The notes under the pieces were generated by a model. The model was not told where the DNA came from and made no database searches. It saw only the letters and a program-made list of their open reading frames with translations. The position numbers and the translations under genes were made by a program. DNA of 21,391 bases from a virus. Shown in pieces: positions 40 through 18,530 of the stretch. Where the stretch lies: the IMG/VR virus record IMGVR_UViG_3300033172_000027; one strand, given 5' to 3'. Each line of letters begins with the position of its first letter. Position 1 is the first letter of the stretch.

Positions 40-50
40 TTTAGTACATG

Positions 51-464
51 ATGGCAAAAGGTGGTCCCGTCGGTGAAGATGAAGAGAAGGCGATCCTCGA
101 AGCTCTGAAGGCGGGCCGATCCGTCCGAGACGTAGCCGACGAATTCGACAGAGCGACAGGGACCATATCTAACATAGCCGCACGAAATGAACTCGATTTG
201 GGTGAACGTTCAGCAACGAAAAAGGCGGCTCTTATCAAGTCCTGTTACGCCGCCGAGGACAGGATCAAGCTGATAGGCGAGGCCCTGAACAAAGGCAGGG
301 AGCTTCTGAAGAGCTGCGATAGTCCCCGCGATTTTCAATATCTGATGACCGGCTTTGCGATCGGCATCGATAAGCGGCGGCTGGAAGAGGCGACCGACCC
401 ATCGGCCCGGGGCGGGGAGATCCGGATCCTCTTCGAGAGGATGGGCGAGGAGGTGGAGGCTTGA
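51..464 (+). CDS. HTH protein, putative terminase small subunit
   Basis: N-terminal HTH (ILEALKAGRSVRDVADEFDRATGTISNIA). Its stop overlaps the terL start (TTGA). ATG 51 aligns with the unit B start at 14116; ATG 48 is an alternative. The TerS role is inferred from position. Confidence 0.65.
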   Translation: MAKGGPVGEDEEKAILEALKAGRSVRDVADEFDRATGTISNIAARNELDLGERSATKKAALIKSCYAAEDRIKLIGEALNKGRELLKSCDSPRDFQYLMTGFAIGIDKRRLEEATDPSARGGEIRILFERMGEEVEA

Positions 465-1693
465 GCTTCCAAGTCCCTGTGGGGAAGCAGAGGGACTTCT
501 GTCTCGGCTCCGATGCGAGGGTCAATATCGCCCACGGGGCGGTGAGGTCTGCGAAGACCGTCGGGGCCAACGTCCGATGGCTCCGGGCCGTCCTGGAGGC
601 GCCGGCGGGTGTCAACCTCCTCATGACGGGGAAGACCCTCACCTCCCTGGAGCGCAACGTCCTTCTCCCCATCTCCAGGCTTGTGGGGGCGGGCGACTTC
701 GAATACCGGCGGTCCCTGAAGGTCGCCACCATCTACGGGCGGCATATCCTTTGCGAAGGGGCCAACGACGAGAGCGCCTATACCAAGATCGCCGGCCTCA
801 CCCTCGGCGGCGCCTACGTTGACGAGGGGAGCCTCTCCCCGGAGAGCTTCCTTAACATGCTGGTGAGCCGCCTCTCCGAGCCCGGAGCTCAACTCTTCCT
901 CACCACGAACCCCGGCCCCCCCGCTCACTACCTCAAGAAGCGATGGATCGATCGAGAGGAGGAGCTGGACCTCAAAAGCTGGCATTTCACGCTCGAAGAT
1001 AACCCCTGGCTGGATCCCGTTTACGTCGCCGAGCTCAAGCGCCAGTTTGGCCCCCCGTCCAGCCTCTTCTATCAGAGGTACGTTCTCGGTCTGTGGGTGA
1101 TGGCCGAGGGGGCGGTCTATCGCAACTTCGACCGGGACCTTCACGTCGTCCCCTCCCTCCCCGACGAGAGGATGGAGGAGATGAGGGTCGCCGTCGATCC
1201 TGGGGCAACCCATCCGAGCGCGTTTTTGAAAGCTGTTAGGATCGGCGAGACGTGGTACGTCTTCGGCGAGTATCGGAAGGCCGACAAGTCCCCGGCTGAG
1301 GTATCGAAGGACCTTAAGAGGTTCCTCGACGGGATGCACCCCTCATCGATCGACGTCGACCCGGCGGCGAAGGCTCACCGGCTCCAGTTCATCGGCGACG
1401 GTATCGAGGGGGTCCAGCAGGCCGATAACGACGTCCTCAACGGCATCCAGCGGGTCATCTCGGCGTTCAATCAAGGATGGCTCAAGCTTGTGGGGCCGGC
1501 TACTCCCATGCTCCAGGAGGAGCTGGAGGGTTACAGATGGGATCCGAAGGCGACGGAACGGGGCGAGGACGCCCCCATTAAAGAGGGCGACGACCTCGTC
1601 GACGCCCTTCGATACCTGGTTAATAGGATCAGCAAGAGCCGCCGGCTTACTCCTCCGACGGCGAGACGAGAGAGGGGGAGGATCAGATCATGA
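461..1693 (+). CDS. terL: Terminase large subunit (PBSX-like)
   Basis: Walker A-like HGAVRSAKT, Walker B AYVDEG, coupling motif TTNPG, HFTLEDNP, nuclease acidic motifs AVDPG and DDLVDALRY. TTG start preceded by GGAGGT. Confidence 0.92.
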   Translation: MSFQVPVGKQRDFCLGSDARVNIAHGAVRSAKTVGANVRWLRAVLEAPAGVNLLMTGKTLTSLERNVLLPISRLVGAGDFEYRRSLKVATIYGRHILCEGANDESAYTKIAGLTLGGAYVDEGSLSPESFLNMLVSRLSEPGAQLFLTTNPGPPAHYLKKRWIDREEELDLKSWHFTLEDNPWLDPVYVAELKRQFGPPSSLFYQRYVLGLWVMAEGAVYRNFDRDLHVVPSLPDERMEEMRVAVDPGATHPSAFLKAVRIGETWYVFGEYRKADKSPAEVSKDLKRFLDGMHPSSIDVDPAAKAHRLQFIGDGIEGVQQADNDVLNGIQRVISAFNQGWLKLVGPATPMLQEELEGYRWDPKATERGEDAPIKEGDDLVDALRYLVNRISKSRRLTPPTARRERGRIRS

Positions 1694-3066
1694 CTTCGAC
1701 CGTACATACTGACTTAAGCTTCCTCGGACCGGGGCGAAAATGGCCCCCAACAGAGGATAAAGCGCGGCTGGACCGATACGCAATTAACCGCCTCCTCCTG
1801 GAAGGAGACCACGATCTCATCTTCACCAGCCTGAATGAGGACGACGCCCCCCGGATCGTCAAGATGAGGGTCAACTGGTTCAAGCGGATCATGACCCTCT
1901 TCTCCGACCTGGCTGTGGGGAACCCTCCGGCGATCAGAGCCGACGAGCCGCAACAGCCCAACCTCGACCGGGTCGTTGAGGGTAACTCCCTCTCCCTCAC
2001 GGCCTACGACCTCTTCTCCGACCTCATAGCCTTCGGCGACGGGGTCCTCAAGGTCCGATGGAACGGGGGCCGGGGTGTCATCTCCAGGATCGACCCTCGG
2101 CTCTGGTTCCCGGTCGTCGACCCCGACGACGTCGGGACCTTTGCGGCTCACGTCCTGGCCTGGGAGATCGTCGAGGGCGACGAGAAGTACGTCAAGGCCG
2201 AGATCCACCTCGCCGGAAGGATAGAGCACCGTCTCCTCAAGCTCAACGCCGCCGGCGACGAGATCCTCGGAGCCGTCCCTCTCGCCACGATCGAGAGGTA
2301 CTCGACCCTGAAGGACTCGGAGGAGACGGGCGTCCCCGGCTTCCTGGTGGTCCCCTTTTCCAACCTGAAGAGCGGCGACGGCGTCTTCGGGCTGGACGAC
2401 TTCAAGGGCATAACTGACCTTGTGGAGGAGGTCGAGCGGCGGCTGATCAAGATCTCCGGGACCCTGGACGTCTTCTCTGACCCCTGGATGGCGGGACCCC
2501 CGGGACTGAGGATCAAGGACCCTGTGACGGGCGAGGTAGTTTGGGCTTCCGACGAGAAGTACATCGCCCTTAACGAAGGCGAGTCCCCGCCCTCAATCCT
2601 CACGTGGGATGCTCAGATGGGGGCGACGTTCTCCCACATCGAGGAGGTCCTCGGCCAACTGTACGTGATGGCCGAGCTGTCGCCGGCGGCCTTCGGCGAG
2701 ACGAAGTCCGGGCTCGCCGAGTCGGGATCCGCCCTCAAGAGGCTGATGCTCCCCACCCTGGCGAAGGTCAACCGGCTCCGGCTCCGGATCAAACCGGGGC
2801 TTCTCACCGTCCTGGTGACGACCGCCGAGCTCGAAAAGGCTTCCAGGATGCCGGGGGCGACGTCCCTCGACAACCTCACTATCGAATGGAGGGAGAACCT
2901 CCCCACCGACCCCCTGGAGGCGGCGAAGGTGGAGGCGACAAGACGGGGAGCGAGAGCCACCTCGACGTGGGGGTCCCTATCCAGGCTCGACCCCGACGCC
3001 ACCGAGAAGGACCTCGAAGCCGAGGAGGCGAGGATCAAGGAGGAGGAGGCCGTCCTCCCTCCCTAA
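1690..3066 (+). CDS. Portal protein (SPP1 gp6-like)
   Basis: 458 aa immediately after terL with ATGA overlap. The segment AESGSALKRLMLPTLAKVNRLR and the C-terminal W..NLP.D pattern are typical of SPP1-type portals. Confidence 0.85.
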   Translation: MTSTVHTDLSFLGPGRKWPPTEDKARLDRYAINRLLLEGDHDLIFTSLNEDDAPRIVKMRVNWFKRIMTLFSDLAVGNPPAIRADEPQQPNLDRVVEGNSLSLTAYDLFSDLIAFGDGVLKVRWNGGRGVISRIDPRLWFPVVDPDDVGTFAAHVLAWEIVEGDEKYVKAEIHLAGRIEHRLLKLNAAGDEILGAVPLATIERYSTLKDSEETGVPGFLVVPFSNLKSGDGVFGLDDFKGITDLVEEVERRLIKISGTLDVFSDPWMAGPPGLRIKDPVTGEVVWASDEKYIALNEGESPPSILTWDAQMGATFSHIEEVLGQLYVMAELSPAAFGETKSGLAESGSALKRLMLPTLAKVNRLRLRIKPGLLTVLVTTAELEKASRMPGATSLDNLTIEWRENLPTDPLEAAKVEATRRGARATSTWGSLSRLDPDATEKDLEAEEARIKEEEAVLPP

Positions 3067-3077
3067 TTTATCACAAA

Positions 3078-3096
3078 AAGGACAAACCTTTAAATA
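3078..3096 (+). promoter_or_regulatory. Putative promoter for scaffold/capsid genes (TTTAAATA at 3089-3096, preceded by AAGGACAA)
   Basis: AT-rich 90-bp intergenic gap within a GC-rich operon, containing a canonical archaeal TATA box. Repeated at 17157-17164. Confidence 0.6.
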
Positions 3097-3156
3097 CTAT
3101 ACCAGTGAATATAGACAATAAGGCAAACGAAGGCCGCAAACTTCGGAGATTCGAAA

Positions 3157-3591
3157 ATGTCCAGTGATGATGAAAAGAAGTTCACGCAGGCAGACGTGGA
3201 CCGGATAGTCCAGGAACGGATAGCCCGTGAGAAGGCGAAATACGCCGACTATGACGAGATCAAGGCCGAAAATGAGGACCTGAAGGCCAAGATCGCCGAG
3301 AACGAATCCGCCACCCTGGAAAATCTAAAGCAGAAGGTCGTCACCGACCTCAAGCTCCCCCCCTCCCTGGCGGGACGACTCCAGGGCGCGACGGAGGAGG
3401 AGCTGAAGGCAGACGGCGCCAAGCTGCTGAAAGAACTCGGTCCCCGCGAGCCTGTGGGTGGTGGGGGGCAACCTCCGGGCGACGTGAAGAAACCGTTAAC
3501 CCGTGAGGCTGTCAAGAAGATGACCCCCGACCAAATCATCGCAAACATGGACCAGATCAAGGCCCAAATGAAAGAGGGCTCACTGAGGTAA
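3157..3591 (+). CDS. Capsid scaffolding protein (DUF4355/gp46-like)
   Basis: N-terminal KKFTQADVDRIVQERIAREKAK motif, charged coiled-coil composition, located directly before the capsid gene. Confidence 0.8.
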   Translation: MSSDDEKKFTQADVDRIVQERIAREKAKYADYDEIKAENEDLKAKIAENESATLENLKQKVVTDLKLPPSLAGRLQGATEEELKADGAKLLKELGPREPVGGGGQPPGDVKKPLTREAVKKMTPDQIIANMDQIKAQMKEGSLR

Positions 3592-3596
3592 GATAG

Positions 3597-4451
3597 ATGG
3601 CAATAACGAATTTCATAGGCGAGGTTTGGGCGGCCCAAATCCTCCAGGCTCTCCAGAAGGCCCTGGTTTACGGACAGGCCGGAGTGATCAACCGGGACTA
3701 CGAAGGCGACATCAAGGGGAAGGGCGACACGGTGAGGATCACCGCCCACGGCCCGATAACGATCGACAACTACGACAAGAGCACCGGCCTCTCCGATCCT
3801 GAGGAGCTGGACGACGCCTCCACCACCCTGGAGATCACTCAGGCCAAATCCTTCAACTTCCGGATCGAGGACGTCGACAAGGCGCAGATGAACGTGAAGC
3901 TGATGGAGAGCGCCACCAGAGACGCGGCCTATCGGCTCGCCGACGTGGCTGATCAGTATATCGTGGGGATCATGGCGGCCCAGGCCGGCTCTGCTGTGGG
4001 GGCCGACGGATCTGACAAGATCTTCGACGGGTCGACTGACCTAGTATCCGAGGAGCTGCTTGAGATCAAGCAGAAGCTCGATGAGGCCGATGTCCCCTTT
4101 GAGGGCCGATGGGTCATCGTCCCGCCCTGGGTGACGAAGTGGCTTCTCCAGGAGGACGCCGTGAATCTCCCCATGTGGTCTGCTGTGGAGGGAGTGATGA
4201 AGAACGGTCAGATAGGCCGTCTTTATGGCTTCGACATCCTCCAGTCCAACAACGTACCCAACACCGCCGGAGATCACTACAAGGTTGTGGCTGGGGTGGC
4301 GAGGGCGACGACCTTCGCCGACTCTGTGAACGAGACCGAGGCTTACAGGCCTGACAAGTTCTTCGCCGACGCCCTCCGGGGTCTCCACTGTTACGGCGCG
4401 AAGGTTATCGATCCTGAATGCCTGTGCGTTCTGACCTGTGCTCCGAGCTGA
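3597..4451 (+). CDS. Major capsid protein (HK97 fold, P22-coat-like family)
   Basis: Motifs NFIGEVWAAQIL, NRDYEGDI.GKGDTVRI, G.IGRLYGFDILQSNN and FADALRGLHCYGAKVI; GAGGT ribosome-binding site upstream. Confidence 0.88.
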   Translation: MAITNFIGEVWAAQILQALQKALVYGQAGVINRDYEGDIKGKGDTVRITAHGPITIDNYDKSTGLSDPEELDDASTTLEITQAKSFNFRIEDVDKAQMNVKLMESATRDAAYRLADVADQYIVGIMAAQAGSAVGADGSDKIFDGSTDLVSEELLEIKQKLDEADVPFEGRWVIVPPWVTKWLLQEDAVNLPMWSAVEGVMKNGQIGRLYGFDILQSNNVPNTAGDHYKVVAGVARATTFADSVNETEAYRPDKFFADALRGLHCYGAKVIDPECLCVLTCAPS

Positions 4452-4462
4452 GGTGATGAAGA

Positions 4463-4843
4463 ATGGTAAGATCTGAAATAACCGTAAACGGGCTTTCGGG
4501 GGCGTGGGCTGACAGAGAGACGCCCGACGCGATCGATAAGGGAAACCATCACGTCATCGCCGAGGGTGCGAACTTCAAGAGGCTTCTGATCCTCGTCCAC
4601 ATCTCGGCGGGAACGGGAACCGGCGGCGCTGTGACTCTGAAGGCCGGAACCGCTCACCCTGCCTTTAGGCGAGGTCTCGGCGACCTTGTGAGAGGCGACG
4701 ACGTAGTCGCCAACGATGAGTTCTGCATCGGACCCATTGAGACGGCTCGATACCTCCAGGCAGACGGGACGATCCACATCGACATAACCGACACGACCGG
4801 GACCAACATCGCCGGGACGATCGAGGCCTACGCTCTGCCTTGA
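4463..4843 (+). CDS. Small virion protein, probable capsid decoration/cement protein
   Basis: 126 aa, beta-rich (VTLKAG...GDL...IGPIETARYLQADGTIHIDI), directly after the capsid gene with a GAGGTG ribosome-binding site, conserved in unit B. Function inferred from position. Confidence 0.55.
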   Translation: MVRSEITVNGLSGAWADRETPDAIDKGNHHVIAEGANFKRLLILVHISAGTGTGGAVTLKAGTAHPAFRRGLGDLVRGDDVVANDEFCIGPIETARYLQADGTIHIDITDTTGTNIAGTIEAYALP

Positions 4844-4871
4844 AACATCACGATGGTCTGCGTTAGCCATA

Positions 4872-4924
4872 GGGGGAAGCCTCAAAGGGCTTGTCACCTA
4901 GGCCCGTTCCCCTGGGCTTCCCCC
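4872..4924 (+). other. Intergenic stem-loop (GGGGGAAGCC ... GGCTTCCCCC) with a nested GGGC/GCCC stem
   Basis: 10-bp perfect arms at 4872-4881 and 4915-4924. The arms are identical at 18943-18952 and 18986-18995 while the loop differs. Confidence 0.55.
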
Positions 4925-4947
4925 ACAAACCTCGAAGGTACGATTCT

Positions 4948-5427
4948 ATGACTGAATATGTCACTTCTGAAGAGATGGACGCCTACGCGGCCAACAGACC
5001 CGACTCATCGGCCTGGACCGGCGCCACCGAGGCGGATCAAGAGGACGCCCTGAAATACTCCTCCTCCCTTGTGGACTCTCTTCTATTCGTGGGCCGGAAG
5101 TACGACACCGATCAGGCCCTCCAATGGCCGAGGCTGATTAAGGTCCGGGGCGGCTGGACGGTCGAGAGGGACGCCGAGGGGGACGTCTGCATCCCTCAAG
5201 CGATCAAAGATGCAGTCTGCGAGGAGATCCTGTCGAGGCTATCCCCCACAGGCGCCGAGAGAAGAGCCCTCCAGGCCTCCGGGGTGAAGAGCTTCCGGAT
5301 CTCTGACCTCTCCGAGACCTTCGACCCTGCGATGGAAGGCGGCGGGATCAAGGGAACGCCCCTCATATCATGGACGGCCTACCGGCTGCTGGAGCCCTAT
5401 CTGGCGAAGGGAGCGCGGGCGAGATGA
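4948..5427 (+). CDS. Head-completion protein 1 (head-tail connector/adaptor; so-called DnaT-like phage family)
   Basis: YVTSEEMDAY...W...ALKYSSSLVD...FVGRK....QALQWPR...IPQAIKDAVCE pattern. Start set at ATG 4948 by alignment with unit B ORF 19020 (the track start at 4891 is upstream). Confidence 0.7.
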   Translation: MTEYVTSEEMDAYAANRPDSSAWTGATEADQEDALKYSSSLVDSLLFVGRKYDTDQALQWPRLIKVRGGWTVERDAEGDVCIPQAIKDAVCEEILSRLSPTGAERRALQASGVKSFRISDLSETFDPAMEGGGIKGTPLISWTAYRLLEPYLAKGARAR

Positions 5428-6050
5428 GCCTGATCTCCGGCTACCTCAACCAGACGGCCAGCCATTACGTCACAGCCGAATTTTATAATGGGGCTCCTCT
5501 CGACGAGATCCCGCTCAACGATATAACCATCGGCGAGGACTTCAGGATCCGGGCCGAACGTTCGGGGAGCGCCGGCGATCCGAGACATGTCTATCTGGTC
5601 GGGACCCTTGACGGTGAGCCCGTAACTGAAACTCTCACTTTTACATCTGGTCTATACGGCCCCGAATTGATCGTAACGGGCGATGAGCTATTCGACGACC
5701 TCACCGAAGTTACAACCGATATGGGAGGGGACTACGGCATAACAATCAGTATTCGGGCCGTTGATGCCGCCGGCGATGAGATCCCACCCACATGGCAAGA
5801 ATTCGCCTGCAGGTGGGAAGACAAAAGATCGACCTACCTTAAGGTGAGTGACGACGAAGCCAGCGAAGTTATCGCCGTATCTGATGCCAAAGTGATATGT
5901 GAGGCTCAAATAGAGGCCGAGGCCCTGGTTAGGCCCGTTGTTGGCGGCGTTCCGGGGATAGTCTATGAGGTTAAGGTGGTGAAGTCCACGCCCGGCTTGT
6001 CGGGGTCCGAGGAGTTCCGTGTTCTTCTTCTCGGGGGCGTGGGCGAGTGA
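5424..6050 (+). CDS. Head-completion protein 2 (SPP1 gp16-like stopper/adaptor core with a ~115-aa inserted domain)
   Basis: ATGA overlap with the previous gene; ATG 5424 matches the unit B start at 19496. The short N-terminal strand YLNQTA and the C-terminal CRWEDK...SDAKV...YEVK.V...GL.G.EE.R.LLL resemble head-closure proteins. The family call is from pattern and position. Confidence 0.5.
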   Translation: MSLISGYLNQTASHYVTAEFYNGAPLDEIPLNDITIGEDFRIRAERSGSAGDPRHVYLVGTLDGEPVTETLTFTSGLYGPELIVTGDELFDDLTEVTTDMGGDYGITISIRAVDAAGDEIPPTWQEFACRWEDKRSTYLKVSDDEASEVIAVSDAKVICEAQIEAEALVRPVVGGVPGIVYEVKVVKSTPGLSGSEEFRVLLLGGVGE

Positions 6051-6823
6051 CCCGAACCCCGACCCAACGAATAGGCGACAAGTGGGCGAGGACGATCGCC
6101 GAGGCCTTCCTGGCGTGGCAGAGGGAGGTAGAGATCGACGGCCGAAAGAACATCCCGGCGACGGCCTTCGACCCCTCCCCTTTCATCGAGGCCGCATTTT
6201 ACGAGAGCGGTGATGCTCAGCTCGAAGAGATCGGCAAGCTTGTGGGGATAGGCGTCAAATTCGATCTACGAAACCCTGAGACAGCGGCCTGGATCATGAA
6301 ATATGGAGCGGCTGAGGTTAAGTACATCGACGAGACGGCGAAGGCCACCATCAGAGATATCGTCCTCCGGGGCCAGACTGAGGGCCTAACCCCCACAGCT
6401 CAGGCGAAGTTGATCAAAGACCATATCGGACTCCTCCCCCGCCAGCTCCGAGCCCTGGAGACCTTCGAGGAGGGGCTTGTGGGGATGAATGAGGCCGCGA
6501 AAGCGAAGGCGGTCGAGAAGTACCGCAATAGACTTCTGAGACAGAGAGCGATGACCATATCGCTTACGGAAAGCCACAGGGCGGCCAACGAAGGATATCG
6601 AGCGGCCAACAGGGACGCGGTGAAGAGGGGCATCCTCGACCCCGACGAATGGGAGAGAGCCTGGCTCGGAACCCACGATGGCCGGATGTGCTCCATCTGC
6701 GAGGGGCTTGTGGATGCGAGGGCGGATCTCCCCGACGGTCAGTTTGACAGAGGGGGAGGGGGCGGGCCAATTAAGCACCCGAAATGCCGTTGCTGCGAGA
6801 TCCTGGTCCGGAAGGTCGCATAA
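6047..6823 (+). CDS. MuF/SPP1 gp7-like minor head morphogenesis protein
   Basis: RAMTISLTESHRAANEG, W.....DGRMCSICEGL and terminal HPKCRCC motifs. GTG start overlaps the upstream TGA. Confidence 0.82.
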   Translation: MTRTPTQRIGDKWARTIAEAFLAWQREVEIDGRKNIPATAFDPSPFIEAAFYESGDAQLEEIGKLVGIGVKFDLRNPETAAWIMKYGAAEVKYIDETAKATIRDIVLRGQTEGLTPTAQAKLIKDHIGLLPRQLRALETFEEGLVGMNEAAKAKAVEKYRNRLLRQRAMTISLTESHRAANEGYRAANRDAVKRGILDPDEWERAWLGTHDGRMCSICEGLVDARADLPDGQFDRGGGGGPIKHPKCRCCEILVRKVA

Positions 6824-6832
6824 CTGGTCATC

Positions 6833-7078
6833 ATGGCAAAGCGGAAGACCGCCAAGAAGCGGGACTATAAGAAGGAATATAGGGATTTTCACGGTAAGCC
6901 CAAGCAGATCAAACTCCGGAACCAGCGCAACGCAGCGCGGCGGAAGATGGGGCTCAAGGTCGGAGATACTCGAGAAGTGGATCACAAAGTCCCTCTCTCA
7001 AAAGGGGGCTCCAACGGGAAGAGGAATCTCAGGATAGTTTCTCGCCGAACGAATAGGAAGAAAGGCGCGAAGCGATAA
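6833..7078 (+). CDS. Small basic HNH (HNN-type) endonuclease
   Basis: EVDHKVPLSKGGSNGKRNLRIVSRRTNRKKG beta-beta-alpha-metal motif. Absent from unit B. Confidence 0.85.
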   Translation: MAKRKTAKKRDYKKEYRDFHGKPKQIKLRNQRNAARRKMGLKVGDTREVDHKVPLSKGGSNGKRNLRIVSRRTNRKKGAKR

Positions 7079-7168
7079 CACCGCAACAATTCTATTCTCA
7101 CCATTTTATAAGCACCATTTCGACCTGTAAAGCCCGGATGGCGTGCAAGAAATCAGCATCCTCCGAGC

Positions 7169-7587
7169 GTCTTCGGTAAGACGGCGAGTTCGTCTTTGGT
7201 AAGGTCTTGTCTTTGGTAAGGATTTGTCTTTGGTAAGAAGCTATTTATACGATCCTTACCAAAGACAAATACAATGAAGTCGATTAAGGCTCCGGAGGGT
7301 GGAGTTTACCGCCAGGAATTTTATAAGTGCAACAAAGAGCGGTGTAAGAAATGCCGGGACGGGCCGGGACATGGACCCTATTGGGCGCGGTTCTGGTGGG
7401 AGGACGGAAGAACGCGAAAGAAGTACATCGGCAAAAACCTACCTCTTACCAAAGACACCCCGGAGGAGGAGCCCGTCCTTACCAAAGACAAGACCTTACC
7501 AAAGACTCTTACCGAAGACACGCCCCCACCCGAACCCCTACCAAAGACACGAAAGCGACTTACCAAAGACAAATCCTTACCAAAGAC
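7169..7587. repeat. Array of 12 copies of the 12-bp motif CTTAC-CA-AAGAC (consensus CTTACNNAAGAC)
   Basis: Reverse orientation at 7169, 7192, 7209, 7226; forward at 7255, 7445, 7478, 7495, 7508, 7537 (1 mismatch), 7559, 7576. A 17-bp spacing recurs. Confidence 0.95.
7226..7266 (+). promoter_or_regulatory. TATA box (TATTTATA at 7242-7249) between an inverted pair of the 12-bp motif
   Basis: GTCTTTGGTAAG at 7226-7237 and CTTACCAAAGAC at 7255-7266 flank the TATA box. ATG at 7274 is at leaderless-transcript spacing. Confidence 0.7.
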
Positions 7588-7840
7588 GAGCACCCCCACA
7601 GGCGATGAGGTAAAGAGAGCCCTGGAGGCGATCAGAGGCTTTCACGCGCGTGGGATAGAGCCAACGGCGGCGGAGGTGGCGGAGGCCGTGGGGATGGAGT
7701 CCAGGCCCCTGGGGCGGTCGATGGCGGCGGCGGGGATCCAAGCGGTCAACTGTCACCGAGGCGGGAAGAAGGCGCGGCGCTACGTCTTCGAGCTGAGGGA
7801 GAGGATTGAGGAGATGCTAAAGGGTATAGCAGTTGGGTGA
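7274..7840 (+). CDS. DUF6788-like Cys/His domain + repeat-encoded linker + C-terminal winged-HTH protein
   Basis: N-terminal C.KERCKKC....GHGPYW...W...G.TRKKYIGK; central LTKD/LPKT repeats; C-terminal PTAAEVAEAVGMESRPLGRSM HTH-like segment. The DUF6788 name is from memory of that motif. Confidence 0.7.
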   Translation: MKSIKAPEGGVYRQEFYKCNKERCKKCRDGPGHGPYWARFWWEDGRTRKKYIGKNLPLTKDTPEEEPVLTKDKTLPKTLTEDTPPPEPLPKTRKRLTKDKSLPKTSTPTGDEVKRALEAIRGFHARGIEPTAAEVAEAVGMESRPLGRSMAAAGIQAVNCHRGGKKARRYVFELRERIEEMLKGIAVG

Positions 7841-7860
7841 CACTACCACGTGGGCGGCGA

Positions 7861-8469
7861 TCACTTAGCTCCACCAGAAAATACCAAACGGCCCGACTTA
7901 TCTTGACGCAACGACCTATCTATTAAGTCTTGATCAATTTCATAGCGCTCATCGACGGCGGAAAGAAGTTCGTCATGTGTATTGGGCTCGCGTGGACGTT
8001 TTGCCCTATAATAGTATAACTGAACTACTACCCCCGCCTCCTTAGCCGCCTGAACTGCGGGTACAAAATCACTATCGCCCGTGATTATTACAGCCTTTTC
8101 AATCATCCCACGCCAGCTCATCCGAACAAGGTCCACCGCAAACAAAACATCGACTCGTTTTTGAACAAGCTCTCCACCGACCCACCCCAATTTTCCGAGT
8201 CTCGATTCAAATCTAGGGAGACGCTCCACAACATTCATAAATTTTTGTTTGTTTGCGTATCTCCGTTTTTCGTCTTCGGTGGGCGGATCGCTCTGAAAAG
8301 GCATACAATCATAATAATAGGTTCTTAATCTATAGTCCGATCCATTACACAAATTATCACAAAATATCTCAAAGTCGATTTTTGGGCGCCCGAACGGGCC
8401 ATCTAAAACCTTCTCGAAAAAACCACCGTCGATAAAAACCGCTACCTTCCCCAAAAAATTCCCTTCCAT
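7861..8469 (-). CDS. NYN-domain (LabA/DUF88, PIN-like) putative RNase
   Basis: Conserved acidic motifs VFIDGG, TYYYD, QKRVDV..AVD and TGDSDFVPAV..AK..GV.V. Confidence 0.88.
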   Translation of the reverse strand: MEGNFLGKVAVFIDGGFFEKVLDGPFGRPKIDFEIFCDNLCNGSDYRLRTYYYDCMPFQSDPPTEDEKRRYANKQKFMNVVERLPRFESRLGKLGWVGGELVQKRVDVLFAVDLVRMSWRGMIEKAVIITGDSDFVPAVQAAKEAGVVVQLYYYRAKRPREPNTHDELLSAVDERYEIDQDLIDRSLRQDKSGRLVFSGGAK

Positions 8470-8485
8470 ATCTGTGAATATTTCA

Positions 8486-8509
8486 CTACCGTCCCCGAAG
8501 GGACGGTAG
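8486..8509. repeat. Perfect 10-bp hairpin CTACCGTCCC-CGAA-GGGACGGTAG
   Basis: Arms at 8486-8495 and 8500-8509 are exact reverse complements, located in the divergent intergenic region. Confidence 0.85.
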
Positions 8510-8635
8510 GGGCTATAGTGTAGTTACTCACTACTATAGGCAGTGATATAATAATCTGGCGGATGGGGCAGGATTTTTGGAGCATCGAAACACTTTTCGC
8601 CTATTGGGGCAGTCTCTTCCCCAGGAGATCAGGAT

Positions 8636-9226
8636 ATGGGAATTAAGGAAAAGTTACCGTTGCTTAATAGCGAAAAGAAAGCGACAAGAATCGCGGGCTA
8701 TGTGGTGTATGCGTTTGTTGTTTTGATTGTCTTGGGAGCCATTCTTCCGAGCCCGGATACTGGAGGAGAGACGGGGACGACCACGACAGCCGCAACTGCG
8801 GCCACCACAGACGAGAGCGCGGCCACTGGAACGGCTGACAAGGAGAAAGAGATCGATCCAAACCTTGAATGGATGGCCACAACTTACGTATCAATGGGTT
8901 ATATCGTGGAGGACATGCAGGCAGTGAGTACCGCTGCAGAAGATATGGACATTGACGAAGTAGCGTCCAGATGCTCCGACTTAAAGGCCCATGTTCAAGT
9001 AGCAAAGCGCCTTAATAATGAATACGAAGTTAGCTCAGAATTGGCGACTGCTAAATATGAATGGGGCGGGGCTTTGGACGACTACGAAAGGGCGGCTGAA
9101 GAGGGTTATAACGGTGCGAAAAACCTAGACCCGGAAGCCCTTGAAAAAGCATCACTGTATATGACGATGGGAAATAAGCATATCGAAAAGGCAACGGCTG
9201 AGATTGACCGATACAGTAAGGCTTAG
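8636..9226 (+). CDS. Single-pass membrane protein with a Thr/Ala-rich linker and helical extracellular domain
   Basis: Hydrophobic segment IAGYVVYAFVVLIVLGAILP, linker TGTTTTAATAATTDESAATG, acidic helical C-terminal region; AGGA upstream of the ATG. Confidence 0.75.
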   Translation: MGIKEKLPLLNSEKKATRIAGYVVYAFVVLIVLGAILPSPDTGGETGTTTTAATAATTDESAATGTADKEKEIDPNLEWMATTYVSMGYIVEDMQAVSTAAEDMDIDEVASRCSDLKAHVQVAKRLNNEYEVSSELATAKYEWGGALDDYERAAEEGYNGAKNLDPEALEKASLYMTMGNKHIEKATAEIDRYSKA

Positions 9227-9417
9227 ATCCCCACCTTTTCATCTCTTTTTATTCGATCCTATTATTAAATTCTCTAGAAGCGTTTTGAGGGGCTCTTTTT
9301 TCTGGAGGTGCGGGGGAACCATGGCTGATGGGGTTCATTTTGAGGCGATAATACTAAAATTTACCGAAACATTTTTTAATGAAATTTGACAGTAACTTTA
9401 TCCAAGAGGTTGACAAG

Positions 9418-9942
9418 ATGTGGTTTAAACTGATTTTGGCGTTATTGATGCTGGTATCCTCAGCCCTGGCAGACGAGGTAGATGACCAAATAGCTGCCCT
9501 GAAAGATCCAGCCACAGGATGGGAAGAGAGGACCGAAGCCCTTAATGGATTAATCCAAAGTAATGATTCAAGAGCTGTTGAACCCTTGATTGCGTGTCTA
9601 AATGACGAAAATTCAGCAATACGTTTTTCCGCGGCCGCGGGTCTTGGATCATTTGCTGATCCTAGAGCTGTTGATCCGTTGATCGATTCTCTGAAGAACG
9701 ACAAAGATGTCTTAACTCGCAAGGGGGCTGCGTACTCTTTAGGTAAAATTGGCGATCCTAAAGCCCTTTCCGCGTTGAAATATGCGGCCGCTAATGATGA
9801 ATCCCCACAAGTTCGGGGTAGTGCAACTGAAGCTATAGCTGTAATCAATGTCGATAATCCCGAAGAAAGCCCATTAACCTTATCGATAGGAGCTATATCC
9901 CTTATAACAGCTGCTCTCTTAACCAGGTCCAGGAGGAGATAA
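9418..9942 (+). CDS. Exported HEAT-repeat (PBS-lyase-like) protein with C-terminal membrane anchor/sorting-like tail
   Basis: Signal peptide MWFKLILALLMLVSSALA (GAGGT at 9406-9410 favours ATG 9418 over 9379). Repeats RAVEPLIACLND, RAVDPLIDSLKND, ALSALKYAAAND. Tail ESPL-hydrophobic-RSRRR. Confidence 0.8.
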   Translation: MWFKLILALLMLVSSALADEVDDQIAALKDPATGWEERTEALNGLIQSNDSRAVEPLIACLNDENSAIRFSAAAGLGSFADPRAVDPLIDSLKNDKDVLTRKGAAYSLGKIGDPKALSALKYAAANDESPQVRGSATEAIAVINVDNPEESPLTLSIGAISLITAALLTRSRRR

Positions 9943-10271
9943 GAATTAGACCGGAATTACAATACTTTAAACTGTAATTGCCTTCAAACTCCACCACCTT
10001 TTTTATAACAACCGAACCCCGGCTTGTTTACTCGATCGCAAGCCTCCCCACAGAGACTATAGGAATGTTGGCGAGCCGTCGCGTATCATCATGGGGTGAT
10101 GGGTCGAAAAGATCCTTATCCGAGAGGGCCGGCCCGGAGCAGTGGCGACCGATAGCGGTTTTTGAGGCGAGAATTTCGATTAGACTTATCGATCAGTTAT
10201 ACCAAGTAGGCAGATCACATCAGCCCCCCAGGGAGGGAGTACAATTGAGATTATTTTATACGACATACCCG

Positions 10272-10320
10272 TTCTTATGTAACCGATTGACCCTAAATGA
10301 TAGGGCGGGTTACATAAGAA
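10272..10320. repeat. Perfect 13-bp inverted repeat TTCTTATGTAACC/GGTTACATAAGAA with a nested CCCTA/TAGGG hairpin
   Basis: Arms at 10272-10284 and 10308-10320; inner stem at 10291-10295 and 10301-10305. Confidence 0.9.
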
Positions 10321-10410
10321 AATACGGGGGGGGCCAGAGCCCAGTAGGAGGAGTTACTCGAACCTCGCGCGATGGAGATTAATGTAAGGCGAATGATCTT
10401 CACAAGTCTT

Positions 10411-10477
10411 AAGAAACATTGAAGAATCTTCAAAGAAACGTCGAAGAATCGTCACATGGCGAGCTAACCTATAAATA
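10411..10477 (+). promoter_or_regulatory. Two 18-bp direct repeats (AAGAAACRTYGAAGAATC, 22-bp period) upstream of TATA box TATAAATA
   Basis: Repeats at 10411-10428 and 10433-10450; TATA at 10470-10477, ahead of the RHH gene. Confidence 0.6.
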
Positions 10478-10542
10478 GCACCACGCCATTATAATTGGTG
10501 TCGAAATAGACCTGGGGGTGCCACCCCAGGAGGAACCGAAAT

Positions 10543-10728
10543 ATGACAGTCAATCGACCAGGGGATCAGATCCTCACAGTCTACATGCCAAAAGACGAGC
10601 GGGCTATTTTTGCATCCGCCGCCAAAAATTTAGGCGTTCCTGTGTCATCTTTTGGAAGGCTAATTTTGAGAATCGGATACGATCAAGTCCAGCGAGAGCC
10701 TTCGCTCCTAATCGAGGCGATGAAATGA
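10543..10728 (+). CDS. Ribbon-helix-helix (CopG/Arc-like) regulator
   Basis: 61 aa with strand ILTVYMP followed by two helices (KDERAIFASAAKNLG and VSSFGRLILRIG), the typical RHH layout; lies upstream of the replication gene. Confidence 0.7.
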   Translation: MTVNRPGDQILTVYMPKDERAIFASAAKNLGVPVSSFGRLILRIGYDQVQREPSLLIEAMK

Positions 10729-10971
10729 TAAGTAAAAGTTGGGTAGTGGCGGGTGCCATCCGCCACCGTGTCAGACCAGCCGCTTTCCTCCTTTTCGTTG
10801 CACGGCCAACAGGAACCGAAGAAGCCAGCCGAGCAGGTGGTCTATATGAGTTGTTGTAGTTTCCCCGATATAAATGTGTCTATTTTGCCATTTACAGCCA
10901 CCTCATCCAGATCAAGGCAAACGGGGACCGGGTTATCCTTCGCAAACCCTACCTCATCTCCACGAGATCAC

Positions 10972-10993
10972 TTTCACCATGCTCATGGTGAAA
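10972..10993. promoter_or_regulatory. 22-bp palindrome TTTCACCATG-CT-CATGGTGAAA, putative operator of the replication gene
   Basis: 10-2-10 perfect inverted repeat ending 31 bp before ATG 11025. Confidence 0.55.
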
Positions 10994-11024
10994 AAATAAA
11001 AGATATCCGGTCAGAGGGGTGGAG

Positions 11025-14000
11025 ATGAACGCCCCCACAGTCGAAGAACTGACCCGGTTCATCAAGTTCCTCGGCCATGAAAAGTTCTGCATCAAGAGCG
11101 TGAGGACGGGCGAGAAGGGCGCACAAGAGGCGCATTTCGACCTCATCAACGCCAACAAGGCCGTCGATTACATCAAGCTGAGGGACGGGAAGAGGCAACT
11201 GTGGGTGAACGTCCAGAAGTTGAAGAGGGACTCCGAGAAATACCATACCCATCTGGACGTCGAGGCCTACACCAACATTTTTTTGGACATCGACGCCAAA
11301 AAGCCTGATGATAGAAAGGACCACGCCGCGACTGAATTCGAGCGGGGCTTTGCTGTGGCGCAGCTCCCCACAGTCCAGAGATGGTTATCGGAGAAGGGCT
11401 TCAAGAGCGGGCTCGGCTTCAAGTCCGGGAACGGGGCGGGGCTGCTGCTGCCTATCCCCCCCACCGAACCGACGCCGGAGTTCATAGCGAAGGTGGCGGC
11501 CTTCCTGAAGGTGGTCAGAAAGGAGGCCGACGTCGACGTCGACACGGCGACCTTCGATCCTCCAAGAGTCTGTGGGGTCCTAGGGACCTGGAACTCGAAG
11601 TTTGAAGACGAGGAAGAGGGGCGGAAGAACCACCACCGGGAAGCTATCGGCGAGATCCCCACAAGAGATGAGGATGCGAAGCTCCTGAGGTTCATCGAGG
11701 AGCTGACACCAGACCCCGACGCCCTGAAGACCTGGACGGAGAAGTTCAACCAGCCCCCCACAGCCGGGGGGGACGAGGACGCCGAGCCGGAACCGCAGGA
11801 GGACGCCGGGGAGATCGACGTCGACTTTGTGAGGGAGAAGCTCGACACCCTTTTAGAGGCTGATCCGACCCTCCAGAGCCTTCTGGACTGGACCGACGAG
11901 GCGAAGGAACGGCACGACGGGGACCGATCAGACGCCGAGTTTGGGCTTGTGGGGAAGCTCACCGGCGCCGGGTTTACCGATCCAGAAATCAACTGGATCA
12001 TGACCTACATCTCGCGGATCGGGAAGTGGTCCGAGGAGGGAGAACATTATCAGAGGCTTACCCTCCGGAAGATCCGGGCGAAGGATGCCGAGGAGACCGC
12101 CGAGGACGAAGGAGAGGGCGCCGGAGCCACCGACCCGGAACGGCTGAGGTTCAAGGATCTTATGAAGACCGTCACCGACGAGGAGACCGGGAAGAAGAGA
12201 CGGCAAAGAAGCGTAACGGCGGCGGCAACCTCGATCATAAAGAAGTATGATATCATCTCGACCCCCGACGGTCAGATATGGGTCTACGACGCCCAGGAGG
12301 GGATCTGGAAGCCGAACGGTAGGACCCTCGTCGCCGCGGAACTCGATCACGCCGGGAACGACGCAACCAACATCACGTTCACCCGCGAGGTTACGCAAAA
12401 GGTCTTCCTCCGAACCCTGGACGAGACCGACGGCGATATCTTCAATCCGGACCCCGACCTATTCCCTGTCGAGAACGGGATCATAGACCTCAGGAAGGGG
12501 CTCGACGGCTTCATGCCGCACGATCCGAAGTATAAGCGCACCTGGAAGTCTCCGATCGTCTTCGATCCGAAGGCGAAATGCCCTGAGATCGAGAAGTACC
12601 TCGCCTCCAGCCTGGACGAGGCCGGGAGAGAGACTCTCATCGACGTCATGGCGGCGAAGCTGTCCGGTTACGTCTTCAACTACTTCTCACCATGGGTGGG
12701 GACGGGACGGAACGGTAAGCTGATGGCGGCGGAGATAATCAGAGGGATATGGGGAAGCCCTCTCATAACCGAAGTGGAGGTCTATAAGCTCGCGGAGAGG
12801 AGGTTTGATCAGATCGCCCTGAGGGGGAAGAGATGGATCTTCAACTCAGAGACACCCCGAACCGCCACAAAGACCCTATTCGATTGGGCAAAGAAGATCT
12901 CCGGCGGGGACATGATAACCGCCGATCAGAAGAACAAGGAGCACGTCCAGTTTAGGACCGACGCCTATTTCGTTTTTGATTGCAACTCCGCCCCAAGGAT
13001 CGGCGAGTCTACGAGAGCGATCGAGGAGCGGATCGCCCCCATTTTTTGGCCCTATACATTCGTAGACAACCCCGTCGCCCCTGAGGAGAGGAAGGCAGAT
13101 CGCCACCTCCTGGGAAAGATCACCAAGCCGGAGGAGCTTTCGGGATTCCTCAACGTCCTCCTCCTGGAGGCCCCGAGGCTGATCGAGACAAGGATCATCC
13201 GGAGAACTGGGACCGGGAAGGAGATCGTCGAGGCCTACAACCTGAAAGCCGACCATCTCGCCATGTTCTGGGACCGAGTAGTAAGCTATTCTCCTGGGAA
13301 CGTGACACCGTCGACAGTGATGTACAACGGATACAAGCGGCTATGCGAAGCGATCAAAGTCTCACCCGAAACTCTCGTCGGCTTCAATCGATACGGGCAG
13401 AGAATTGGCTTCCGGAAGGGCTCGCCCCGCGTCTCAACCGACGACGGAAGGCAGGTACAGGTGAAGGGGTGGTACGACTGCGAGATCGACGAGAGCGAGT
13501 TAGAGGACCTCATCGGCCCCAAAGACGACGAGAAAACCGATCCGCCCCAAGACGACGATAAGGGAGACGACGAGAAGAAACAGGAACGGGTTACGGATGT
13601 TACCGGCATGTTACCGGTTTTGGAAAACGAAAACCAGCAACATGTTACCGATGTTACCGACATTACCACTTTAGATAACAGTCTAAAGGATATAGAGGAT
13701 ATAGGTAATAGTCCTGTAAATTGTATAAAGGAAGTTGTGGACGAAACCGGTAAAAGCGGTAAAATTGGTAACAAGATAGCGATTCCGACCGGTAACATAG
13801 CGGTAACATGCCCCCCAAAAAACGGTAACATCGCCGGCAAAACTTCACCCCGTCCTGTGGGCGAGAAGGCGAAGGACGACGGGGTCTTCGGGAAGAGTCG
13901 AGCGTACTATCTCCAAGTCGGTGGAGGCCAGATCCCCACCATCCGGCAACTGATGGATGACATCCCCAGCGAGTGGACAGCGGATAAAGCGAAGATGGCT

Positions 14001-14057
14001 ATCCATCTCCTGGAGGAGAAGGGCGATTCGAGGGGGTTCAATATGCCGCCGGATTGA
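11025..14057 (+). CDS. Replication protein: AEP-like primase domain + helical PriCT-like domain + D5_N + SF3 helicase (P4-alpha/D5-like)
   Basis: IFLDID, SGNG, D..TFDPPRV...GTWNSK; DRSDAEFGLVGKL; FPVENGIIDLRKG...HDPKYKRT; Walker A-like GTGRNGK, RGKRWIFNSE, KKISGGDMITADQKNK, FVFDCN. ATG 11025 is preferred over GTG 11019. Confidence 0.85.
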   Translation: MNAPTVEELTRFIKFLGHEKFCIKSVRTGEKGAQEAHFDLINANKAVDYIKLRDGKRQLWVNVQKLKRDSEKYHTHLDVEAYTNIFLDIDAKKPDDRKDHAATEFERGFAVAQLPTVQRWLSEKGFKSGLGFKSGNGAGLLLPIPPTEPTPEFIAKVAAFLKVVRKEADVDVDTATFDPPRVCGVLGTWNSKFEDEEEGRKNHHREAIGEIPTRDEDAKLLRFIEELTPDPDALKTWTEKFNQPPTAGGDEDAEPEPQEDAGEIDVDFVREKLDTLLEADPTLQSLLDWTDEAKERHDGDRSDAEFGLVGKLTGAGFTDPEINWIMTYISRIGKWSEEGEHYQRLTLRKIRAKDAEETAEDEGEGAGATDPERLRFKDLMKTVTDEETGKKRRQRSVTAAATSIIKKYDIISTPDGQIWVYDAQEGIWKPNGRTLVAAELDHAGNDATNITFTREVTQKVFLRTLDETDGDIFNPDPDLFPVENGIIDLRKGLDGFMPHDPKYKRTWKSPIVFDPKAKCPEIEKYLASSLDEAGRETLIDVMAAKLSGYVFNYFSPWVGTGRNGKLMAAEIIRGIWGSPLITEVEVYKLAERRFDQIALRGKRWIFNSETPRTATKTLFDWAKKISGGDMITADQKNKEHVQFRTDAYFVFDCNSAPRIGESTRAIEERIAPIFWPYTFVDNPVAPEERKADRHLLGKITKPEELSGFLNVLLLEAPRLIETRIIRRTGTGKEIVEAYNLKADHLAMFWDRVVSYSPGNVTPSTVMYNGYKRLCEAIKVSPETLVGFNRYGQRIGFRKGSPRVSTDDGRQVQVKGWYDCEIDESELEDLIGPKDDEKTDPPQDDDKGDDEKKQERVTDVTGMLPVLENENQQHVTDVTDITTLDNSLKDIEDIGNSPVNCIKEVVDETGKSGKIGNKIAIPTGNIAVTCPPKNGNIAGKTSPRPVGEKAKDDGVFGKSRAYYLQVGGGQIPTIRQLMDDIPSEWTADKAKMAIHLLEEKGDSRGFNMPPD
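13589..13843. other. Putative replication origin inside the rep gene: converging iterons around an AT-rich core
   Basis: ATGTTACCG at 13597, 13608, 13642, 13651; its reverse complement CGGTAACAT at 13790, 13801, 13823; degenerate copies at 13748, 13757, 13766; AT-rich centre at about 13661-13747. Confidence 0.7.
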
Positions 14058-14112
14058 GTACAAAGAGGACAATCTACAAAACCCTTTTATATAATGATTG
14101 TCCTTATTGTAC
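14058..14112 (+). promoter_or_regulatory. Unit B terS promoter inside a 17-bp imperfect inverted repeat
   Basis: GTACAAAGAGGACAATC (14058-14074) and GATTGTCCTTATTGTAC (14096-14112) match at 15/17 as reverse complements. The TATA box lies in the 21-bp spacer, and the repeat begins right after the rep stop codon. Confidence 0.75.
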
Positions 14113-14115
14113 ACA

Positions 14116-14532
14116 ATGGCAAAAGGCGGTCCCGTTGGTGATGAAGAGGAGAAGGCGATCCTCGAAGCTCTGAAGGCCGGCCGGGGGGTCCGGGCTGTCG
14201 CCGCCGAGTTTGATCGAGCGCCCTCTACCATCTCTTCCGTCGCCACCCGCAACGGTCTGGACGTCGCCGAACATGTTTTGATGAAAAAGCGGGACCTGAT
14301 GAGGACGTGTTACAACGCCGAGGCTCGCATCAGGCTTGTGGGGGAGCTGCTGGATAAGGCGCGGTCCATGCTGAAGACCTGCGACAGCTCAAGAGACCTT
14401 CAGTATCTCGCAACCTCGATAGCGATCGGCATCGATAAGCGGCGGCTCGAAGAGGCGACCGACCCGTCGGCGAGGGGCGGGGAGATCCGGATCCTCTTCG
14501 AGACGATGGGGGGCGAGGAGGTGGAGACTTGA
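14116..14532 (+). CDS. HTH protein, putative terminase small subunit (unit B variant)
   Basis: About 70% identical to 51-464 (hand count 98/138). Start set at ATG 14116 by alignment. Confidence 0.65.
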   Translation: MAKGGPVGDEEEKAILEALKAGRGVRAVAAEFDRAPSTISSVATRNGLDVAEHVLMKKRDLMRTCYNAEARIRLVGELLDKARSMLKTCDSSRDLQYLATSIAIGIDKRRLEEATDPSARGGEIRILFETMGGEEVET

Positions 14533-15761
14533 GCTTCCAAGTTCCTGTGGGGAAGCAGAGGGACTTCTGTCTCGGCTCCGATGCGAGGATCAATATCGCT
14601 CATGGGGCGGTGAGGTCTGCGAAGACCGTCGGGGCCAACGTCCGATGGCTTCGGGCCGTCCTGGAGGCGCCGGCGGGTGTCAACCTCCTGATGGCCGGGA
14701 AGACCCTCTTCTCCCTGGAGCGCAACGTCCTCTCACCCATCGCTCGGCTCGTCGGCTCGAATAACTTCGACTATAAGAGGTCCCTCAAGACGGCCTACAT
14801 CTACGGCCGGCCCATCATGGTGGAGGGCGGGAACGATGAGGCGGCCTATTCGAAGATCGCAGGCCTCACCCTGGGGGGAGCCTACGTCGACGAGGGCTCC
14901 CTCGTCCCTGAGTCCTTCACCAACATGCTCATAACCCGCCTCTCCGAGCCCGGAGCTCAACTCTTCCTCACCACGAACCCCGGCCCCCCCGCTCACTACC
15001 TCAAGAAGCGATGGATCGATCGAGAGGAGGAGCTCGACCTCAAGGCCTGGCATTTCACGCTCGAAGATAACCCCTGGCTGGACTGGTATTATATCGAGGA
15101 GCTCAAGCGCCAGTTTGGCCCCCCGTCCAGCCTCTTCTATCAGAGGTACGTTCTCGGCTTGTGGGTGATGGCCGAGGGGGCGGTCTATCGCAACTTCGAC
15201 CGGGACCTTCACGTCGTCCCCTCCCTCCCCGACGAGAGGATGGAGGAGATGAGGGTCGCCGTCGATCCTGGGGCAACCCATCCGAGCGCGTTTTTGAAAG
15301 CTGTTAGGATCGGCGAGACGTGGTACGTCTTCGGCGAGTATCGGAAGGCCGACAAGTCCCCGGCTGAGGTATCGAAGGACCTTAAGAGGTTCCTCGACGG
15401 GATGCACCCCTCATCGATCGACGTCGACCCGGCGGCGAAGGCTCACCGGCTCCAGTTCATCGGCGACGGTATCGAGGGGGTCCAGCAGGCCGATAACGAC
15501 GTCCTCAACGGCATCCAGCGGGTCATCTCGGCGTTCAATCAAGGATGGCTCAAGCTTGTGGGGCCGGCTACTCCCATGCTCCAGGAGGAGCTGGAGGGTT
15601 ACAGATGGGATCCGAAGGCGACGGAACGGGGCGAGGACGCCCCCATTAAAGAGGGCGACGACCTCGTCGACGCCCTTCGATACCTGGTTAATAGGATCAG
15701 CAAGAGCCGCCGGCTTACTCCTCCGACGGCGAGACGAGAGAGGGGGAGGATCAGATCATGA
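14529..15761 (+). CDS. terL: Terminase large subunit (unit B)
   Basis: Same motifs and length as 461-1693; differences are clustered in the ATPase half. Confidence 0.92.
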   Translation: MSFQVPVGKQRDFCLGSDARINIAHGAVRSAKTVGANVRWLRAVLEAPAGVNLLMAGKTLFSLERNVLSPIARLVGSNNFDYKRSLKTAYIYGRPIMVEGGNDEAAYSKIAGLTLGGAYVDEGSLVPESFTNMLITRLSEPGAQLFLTTNPGPPAHYLKKRWIDREEELDLKAWHFTLEDNPWLDWYYIEELKRQFGPPSSLFYQRYVLGLWVMAEGAVYRNFDRDLHVVPSLPDERMEEMRVAVDPGATHPSAFLKAVRIGETWYVFGEYRKADKSPAEVSKDLKRFLDGMHPSSIDVDPAAKAHRLQFIGDGIEGVQQADNDVLNGIQRVISAFNQGWLKLVGPATPMLQEELEGYRWDPKATERGEDAPIKEGDDLVDALRYLVNRISKSRRLTPPTARRERGRIRS

Positions 15762-17134: not shown

Positions 17135-17224
17135 TTTATCACAAAAAGGACAAACCTTTAAATACTATACCAGTGAATATAGACAATAAGGCAAACGAAG
17201 GCCGCAAACTTCGGAGATTCGAAA

Positions 17225-17659: not shown

Positions 17660-17664
17660 GATAG

Positions 17665-18519: not shown

Positions 18520-18530
18520 GGTGGTGAAAA

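Follow-up and report, generated by a model that had tools for sequence, protein, structure and literature searches.

The closest described counterparts of the gene reported here are replication initiators and centromere-binding proteins. Initiator O of phage lambda consists of an N-terminal reader, followed by a C-terminal end for its partner. The Rep proteins of iteron plasmids (RepA, RepE, pi) recognise direct repeats and, for self-repression, an inverted pair over their own promoter; they contain two winged-helix domains, and their site of action adjoins an AT-rich region. Par of pSK1 and StbA of R388 are bacterial, and each system is a single DNA-binding gene which regulates itself, has repeats at its promoter and lacks a dedicated NTPase; these repeats are intergenic, unlike the linker boxes described below, and to our knowledge neither protein has detectable homology to the protein described here. 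Autoregulation is known also for ParR, whereas in the present case it is predicted. The repeated sites of lambda O are situated in the middle of the gene for their own binding protein, where extra repeats add residues (PMC7466680). Ribbon-helix-helix (RHH) centromere-binding proteins have arrays at their own promoter, e.g., ParR/parC of R1 (PMC2241845) and ParG/parH (PMC3130281), and families of ParR set the compatibility of C. perfringens plasmids (PMC9426499).

The window (the whole stretch of DNA which was analysed, 21,391 nt) consists of two related tandem units of about 14.07 kb, unit A at 1-14068 and unit B at 14069-21391, which are 94-98% identical across the head genes. The tandem arrangement may be real or due to co-assembly. 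The head genes of one unit code for TerS, TerL, portal, scaffold, an HK97-type capsid protein and head-completion proteins. The remainder comprises the gene containing the boxes (box gene), a NYN gene in convergent orientation, and genes for a low-complexity and a HEAT-repeat protein; this cargo is followed by a non-coding stretch of about 600 bp, by a small ORF (10543-10728) and by a D5-type primase-helicase of 1012 aa. An HNH endonuclease gene (6833-7078) is present in unit A only; in unit B, position 20894 runs straight into the equivalent of 7077. No tail gene was recognisable in this head-only element of about 14 kb, which may represent an archaeal satellite-like element that forms capsids. 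Related elements were contigs of 13.9-15.2 kb. The NYN and HEAT-repeat cargo genes may be defence-related (PADLOC matches listed below).

By its relatives, the virus-like element is assigned to acetate-using methanogens of the Methanotrichaceae. All organism-labelled relatives belong to this family, except one 13.9-kb scaffold binned as Synergistetes (L105, JALHIN010000038.1, 13,899 bp), which contains the complete 207-aa unit B gene and has 98.5% DNA identity to unit B; this scaffold is probably archaeal and was binned wrongly. Among proteins, the best match (93%) comes from a contig of 14,527 bp in Candidatus Methanocrinis natronophilus. In the nearest record (G001) the gene is absent.

The box gene of unit A (7274-7840) is monocistronic and faces the convergent NYN gene. 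Its features, together with the two cargo genes named above and the counterpart in unit B, are:

7169-7180, minus strand: upstream box 1, CTTACCGAAGAC
7192-7203, 7209-7220 and 7226-7237, minus strand: upstream boxes 2-4, CTTACCAAAGAC
7244-7249, plus strand: TATA box TTTATA, its centre about 27 nt before the ATG
7255-7266, plus strand: promoter-proximal box, between TATA box and start codon
7274, plus strand: start codon ATG
7274-7435, plus strand: N-terminal Zn-ribbon-like DUF6788 domain, aa 1-54, with C19, C24, C27 and H33
7436-7597, plus strand: linker-coding DNA with an array of seven boxes, aa 55-108, linker modelled as disordered
7445, 7478, 7495, 7508, 7559 and 7576 (starts), plus strand: exact intragenic boxes, in frames 0 and 1
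7537-7548, plus strand: near-exact intragenic box, CCTACCAAAGAC, one mismatch
7598-7840, plus strand: C-terminal wHTH, aa 109-188, and stop codon
7861-8469, minus strand: NYN-domain cargo gene; PADLOC HEC-09 and NYN, weak
9379-9942, plus strand: HEAT-repeat cargo gene; PADLOC HEAT-ARM_XIII, 1.8e-10
20987-21391, plus strand: counterpart gene region in unit B, cut by the window end
20987 (minus), 21001 (minus) and 21032 (plus strand): promoter boxes of unit B, around TATATATA
21049, plus strand: ATG of the unit B gene, with nine intragenic boxes, one of them reversed at 21282

The box is an asymmetric 12-bp sequence, CTTAC-NN-AAGAC. Exact matches to CTTACNNAAGAC occurred 23 times in the window, compared to 0.06 expected from shuffles, and were confined to the unit A gene and its unit B counterpart. 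An earlier note on this DNA had counted 12 copies in unit A, and had proposed a motif scan of the whole genome as a check; a scan of the window detected boxes at these two places only, and none in unit A beyond the gene locus. Eleven of the copies are exact (within 7169-7587) and the twelfth, at 7537-7548, is a near copy with one mismatch, so that 12 boxes lie inside 420 bp. The distribution stated there, four inverted copies upstream, one just past the TATA box and seven in the ORF, holds if the last group is read as six exact boxes and one near box.

The upstream boxes at 7192, 7209 and 7226 follow each other in steps of 17 bp, and the last of them ends 6 bp before the TATA box. Together with the promoter-proximal box on the plus strand (7255-7266), it forms the inverted pair bracketing the TATA box which had been described before. 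From the position of the TATA box, a leaderless archaeal transcript would be expected. This promoter layout including the TATA box recurs in unit B (21018-25) and in the related loci L003 and L101. Within the gene the boxes are spaced irregularly (13-33 bp), unlike most characterised centromere arrays. A distance of about 180-200 bp separates the upstream from the intragenic cluster, and on the two sides of the promoter the boxes mostly point in opposite directions. In unit B the box reads CTTAC[A/C][T/C/A]AAGAC; thus, the two dialects differ solely at the two central bases, where the array of unit B tolerates variation.

Structure prediction with AlphaFold2, based on 42 homologues, yielded a beta-rich N-domain (residues 1-54, pLDDT 81-92), a stretch with pLDDT < 50 which was taken as a disordered linker (residues 59-107), and a wHTH of the topology H-H-H-beta-beta wing (residues 110-187, pLDDT > 90). 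The C-x4-C-x2-C-x5-H motif of the N-domain was found as noted earlier (C19, C24, C27, H33), and the statement that the repeats encode the linker between the two domains agrees with the model, where every intragenic box sits in DNA for the low-pLDDT part. The wHTH matched MarR-, PadR- and AF1382-type proteins with Z values of 7-8.3, best of all MarR (5h3r; Z 8.3, 73 residues, rmsd 2.6) and AF1382 (2qvo; Z 8.1); the top Foldseek match was 2pg4, and a sequence search of solved structures with the protein gave the same entry only (E = 0.26). As modelled, the fold is generic, and these matches point to no particular subfamily or partner. AspA and TubR were among the weaker structural matches, which is a generic similarity. 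A fold search with the N-domain alone produced nothing convincing (best Z 4.1, Foldseek E at least 1.2); its match to the integrase arm-binding domain (3jtz) had an E value of 3.2 and was rejected as evidence for such an identity. PHROGs and PADLOC contained no match for the protein, and a search of a protein atlas gave scores up to 0.81, i.e., in the range of chance.

A relation of the protein to a DUF6788-like family (DUF6788, PF20586) was suggested by the earlier note, with Pfam among the checks named. The protein by itself (P0001) scored 19.6 bits (E = 0.001, residues 10-54) and thus remained below the gathering score of 27.2, but its orthologues and an N-domain profile place it in the family: 42 homologues, including the 93%-identical P0003, carry a precomputed PF20586 assignment, and a profile of nine N-domains retrieved 2349 representatives at E ≤ 1e-3, the ten top matches of which all contained PF20586 above threshold (29-46 bits) in a Pfam scan. 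Elsewhere, DUF6788 forms the N-terminus of large SARP/AfsR-type regulators (with Trans_reg_C, BTAD, AAA_16 and TPR) and proteins of 400-630 aa contain it as a tandem of two or three (examples of fusions and tandem copies are P0145, P0177, P0179, P0156, P0181 and P0142). These arrangements are consistent with a nucleic-acid-binding role. No paper on DUF6788 was found in the literature, and searches for publications on Methanothrix mobile elements and on self-encoded operator arrays yielded no description of the family.

Several observations indicate that the repeats are constrained as DNA and not as peptide, as had been claimed. The unit A box is read in frame 1 (LTKD) as well as in frame 0 (LPKT), and the reversed copy of unit B (21282-21293) is read as SYVR, all as reported before. 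All eight leucine codons of the linker are CTT, TTA or CTA, which make up 25% of the leucine codons in the other genes of the element; CTC or CTG, which account for 69% there, are used in none of the eight. Among codons for the same residue in orthologues, 0-3 of about 20 differed inside the boxes, versus 30-42% elsewhere in the gene (Fisher p 7e-5 to 0.03, with the box mask defined in one sequence only). Peptide conservation with free synonymous drift, named in the earlier note as the contrary outcome, was looked for; the opposite was found. The upstream copies are untranslated and mostly in opposite orientation, which also argues against a motif in RNA.

DNA of relatives was obtained for 12 loci by exact protein look-up, and for 95 more with an alignment of the wHTH. 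All of the nine DUF6788 loci mapped (9/9) possess a plus-strand box at -16/-18 and a minus-strand box at -43 to -49, with additional boxes further upstream; five to nine boxes from about +172 to +350 are present in all but L011. Intragenic DNA repeats in other DUF6788 genes, proposed as a further check, are therefore a property of these loci. L011, which has a short linker, contains one intragenic box and three boxes just 3' of the stop codon, and thus the array is a DNA element which need not be translated. Three dialects of the box were distinguished, and these pair with three subtypes of the N-domain:

CCAAAG: unit A, L003 and L008
CATAAG, CACAAG or CCTAAG: unit B, L001, L002 and L010
CAGAAG: L009 and L011

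In many relatives the wHTH was kept (57-96% identity) and a ribbon-helix-helix domain replaces the Zn-ribbon. One type is RHH_1 (24-26 bits versus a cut-off of 20.5); these genes have repeats of the GTTAAAC type in the promoter region and again in the DNA for the linker; those of L004 have a period of 11 bp and are read in all three frames. A second type, which is ParD-like and below the Pfam threshold, has AGGACCTTAAGGTCCT palindromes in the same two places. The reader is likely to be the N-domain, since it is this domain, rather than the wHTH, which the sequence of the boxes tracks. The pattern was also evident when 7-mers were compared in 48 distinct complete genes: the promoter (110 nt before the start) shared a mean of 13.1 words with the linker DNA and 2.5 with a control of equal length. 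Sharing was above control in 44/48 genes (Wilcoxon p = 1.6e-8, a value which overstates independence, because the genes are related by descent), and at least three shared 7-mers were present in 22/22 DUF6788 forms and 25/26 other forms. At least six unrelated classes of boxes show this relation between promoter and linker.

Some loci contain more than one member of the family. In L010 there are two full members, the second of which has an RHH reader accompanied by ATTAAATC repeats of its own. Such extra wHTH paralogues, which include short ORFs that are fragments or consist of the wHTH only, were located in L010 (6125-6670 and 5295-5561, both minus strand), L006 (8717-8893) and L003 (9255-9401). 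On L009, a contig of 33.7 kb, two DUF6788 family genes are inverted relative to each other (6949-7569, plus strand; 11395-12009, minus strand); each adjoins a methylase/ResIII pair, and extra box clusters are located between them (9956-10088).

Three candidates for a common partner or target were considered and rejected. The HEAT-repeat protein is present in the window, L006/L007 and L012, and absent from L001-L003, L008, L010 and L011; a neighbouring protein of 250 aa is absent from the window and L003. The third was a non-coding repeat, as a common target of the wHTH, which is present in the window, L003 and L010 only:

10272-10320 (L003: 10718-10766; L010: 10851-10899): 13-bp inverted repeat with a 23-bp loop, core GTTACATAAGAA

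Within the conserved non-coding DNA (about 600 bp), this repeat directly follows a TATA-like TTTTATAC. The core is identical to the unit B-type box, though located in unit A; RHH-type elements lack the repeat.

The genome of Ca. Methanocrinis natronophilus Mx (2.4 Mb) provided a view of the boxes in a host background. CTTACCRAAGAC had nine matches, which all fall in a stretch of 400 bp at the 93%-identical orthologue, and a reversed control pattern gave 0 matches. Specific sites confined to the gene of the regulator itself point to a landmark acting in cis and not to a regulon. Strain Mx contains exactly three full members of the family, on three small contigs, each with a different pair of reader and box and with the same wHTH:

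14.5-kb contig: DUF6788 reader
12.2-kb contig (C18): RHH_1 reader
10.1-kb contig (L113, G002:C24, 10,121 bp): ParD-like RHH reader

The smallest contig has a terminal overlap of 127 bp and is thus a circular episome of about 9,994 bp. The two RHH contigs (C18 and L113) are 76% identical in their replicase DNA. They resemble in this respect the ParR/parC plasmids, where similar replication genes co-reside by means of different pairs (PMC9426499).

What follows on binding and repression, on the wHTH and its role, and on the biological output is a prediction from sequence. The N-terminal Zn-ribbon-like DUF6788 domain would read the 12-bp box CTTAC-NN-AAGAC, and occupation of the box pair around the TATA box would block TBP/TFB or RNA polymerase, with negative autoregulation as the result. 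The proposal of the earlier note that the protein binds these sites and autoregulates is probably correct, since the box tracks the N-domain and the positions flanking the TATA box are kept in DUF6788 loci. The cluster of twelve boxes could then constitute one nucleoprotein landmark, unique to each element. The wHTH would be the output end, common to co-resident elements with different readers and boxes, which probably couples the landmark to a shared partner provided by the host, or to itself. Such a landmark may serve inheritance and compatibility of episomes, comparable to a centromere-binding adaptor without an NTPase of its own.

Among the roles listed for the array by the earlier note (second origin, centromere, packaging site, recombination accessory), a centromere-like or compatibility landmark fits best, as a candidate. 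As in ParR and ParG, short repeats flank the promoter and many members of the family have RHH readers, and as in the ParR families, related co-resident elements differ in their pairs of reader and site. In contrast to ParR/ParG, the window's member has a Zn-ribbon and not an RHH domain, half of the array lies in coding sequence, the output domain is a wHTH, the spacing is irregular, and no ParM or ParA partner gene was seen. Genes for ParA, ParM or TubZ-type NTPases were found neither by Pfam among all ORFs of unit A nor in the gene tables of twelve related loci; therefore, partition would need a host motor or a passive mechanism. Further points against the landmark are the closeness of the dialects of units A and B, whose specificities may overlap, and the divergence between the two units, which spans the entire cargo region (7132-9981) and is thus wider than the box module. 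Taken as a whole (self-repressing protein, element-specific landmark, coupling by the wHTH, maintenance or compatibility), the reading appears to us almost evenly balanced, with doubt slightly ahead; its part concerning stable inheritance and compatibility is put forward tentatively. More doubtful still is the extension to an undescribed plug-in adaptor system, common to viruses, satellite-like elements and plasmids of the Methanotrichaceae and lacking an NTPase, in which interchangeable readers (DUF6788 Zn-ribbon, two kinds of RHH) and one wHTH would hook the elements to host machinery.

A live rival is pure self-regulation, where the gene would encode a plain autoregulated transcription factor, the intragenic boxes would strengthen self-repression by looping, as a roadblock or as a sink, and the wHTH would act on another target. 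The boxes bracketing the TATA box at fixed positions would be expected for such a factor, the distance and mostly opposite orientation of the two clusters would suit a loop, and DUF6788 is fused to SARP-type transcription regulators elsewhere. However, its sites are restricted to its own gene, in the element and in the host genome, which leaves no evident target; no shared 10-mer stood out among the three co-resident elements of strain Mx outside the wHTH-coding DNA; and, with boxes past the stop codon in L011, the array is not bound to the transcribed body of the gene. We consider this explanation rather unlikely.

Similarly improbable is an initiator-origin module of the lambda O type, in which the intragenic array would be a primary or second origin, the N-domain would bind it and the wHTH would recruit a helicase or another component of the replisome. 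Repeats in the middle of a gene, in a part of the protein for which no contact with DNA is assumed, are the design of ori-lambda in gene O (PMC7466680), and this precedent, cited in the earlier note, is the closest formal analogue of the present array, which has seven boxes in linker-coding DNA. A primase-helicase is also encoded in every related element. The inverted sites at the promoter, combined with direct repeats, recall iteron-plasmid Rep proteins, although the present protein consists of a Zn-ribbon and one wHTH. In contrast to both lambda O and the iteron plasmids, there is no AT-rich stretch for unwinding at or beside the array (GC 0.52-0.60 across 7400-7700). The only strong dip of GC content (0.39 at 13600-13799) is inside the 3' end of the primase-helicase gene, where it is flanked by converging repeats:

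13597, 13608, 13642 and 13651, plus strand: ATGTTACCG copies
13757-13831, minus strand: facing ATGTTACCG copies, three exact and one near

Judged by these properties, the region 13597-13831 is a better candidate for an origin than the box array. Further differences from lambda O are the additional boxes bracketing the gene's own promoter, the lack of a sequence relationship to O (no Pfam match of the protein to Phage_rep_O or Rep families) and a C-terminal domain which does not track the replicase of the element. At loci whose replicases lack BLASTP similarity to that of the window, the wHTH is still 59-73% identical, which would speak against co-evolution with a partner; next to the 93%-identical orthologue lies a replicase with a different helicase half. 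The suggestion of a second origin is weakened by these results.

A packaging (pac) site or a recombination-accessory array, e.g., arm-type sites of an integrase, is very unlikely, notwithstanding the TerS, TerL, portal and capsid genes of the element and the location of the L011 boxes between the box gene and an integrase gene: plasmid-like relatives without capsid or terminase genes have the same design, TerS of the element is a separate HTH protein, and the absence of an integrase from unit A speaks against recombination as a general function. That the repeats were selected as short linear motifs of the linker peptide, with the DNA repeats as a by-product of slippage, would agree with arrays growing by tandem duplication (LTKDK five times in L060, one 8-mer eleven times in L055), but is already contradicted by the use of two or three frames and both strands, the copies in untranslated DNA upstream of the start, the fixed rare codons and the frozen synonymous sites, and may be dismissed.

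Returning to the self-repressing protein with its landmark, DUF6788 gains a concrete role which can be tested, with a predicted 12-bp target and three natural dialects of specificity. Should the reading as a plug-in adaptor be true, DUF6788 would represent a new type of domain which binds DNA sequence-specifically, at a 12-bp site that is defined. Binding sites which are written into a disordered linker, where the peptide matters little, stay linked to their protein, and reader and sites could be exchanged against a constant output domain. Methanothrix-type methanogens are major producers of methane and have no genetic system, and we know of no characterised functions for plasmid maintenance in this group. 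The gene and its array may indicate how these organisms keep small episomes, and a working cassette of reader, boxes and wHTH could help to build stable, mutually compatible vectors for them.
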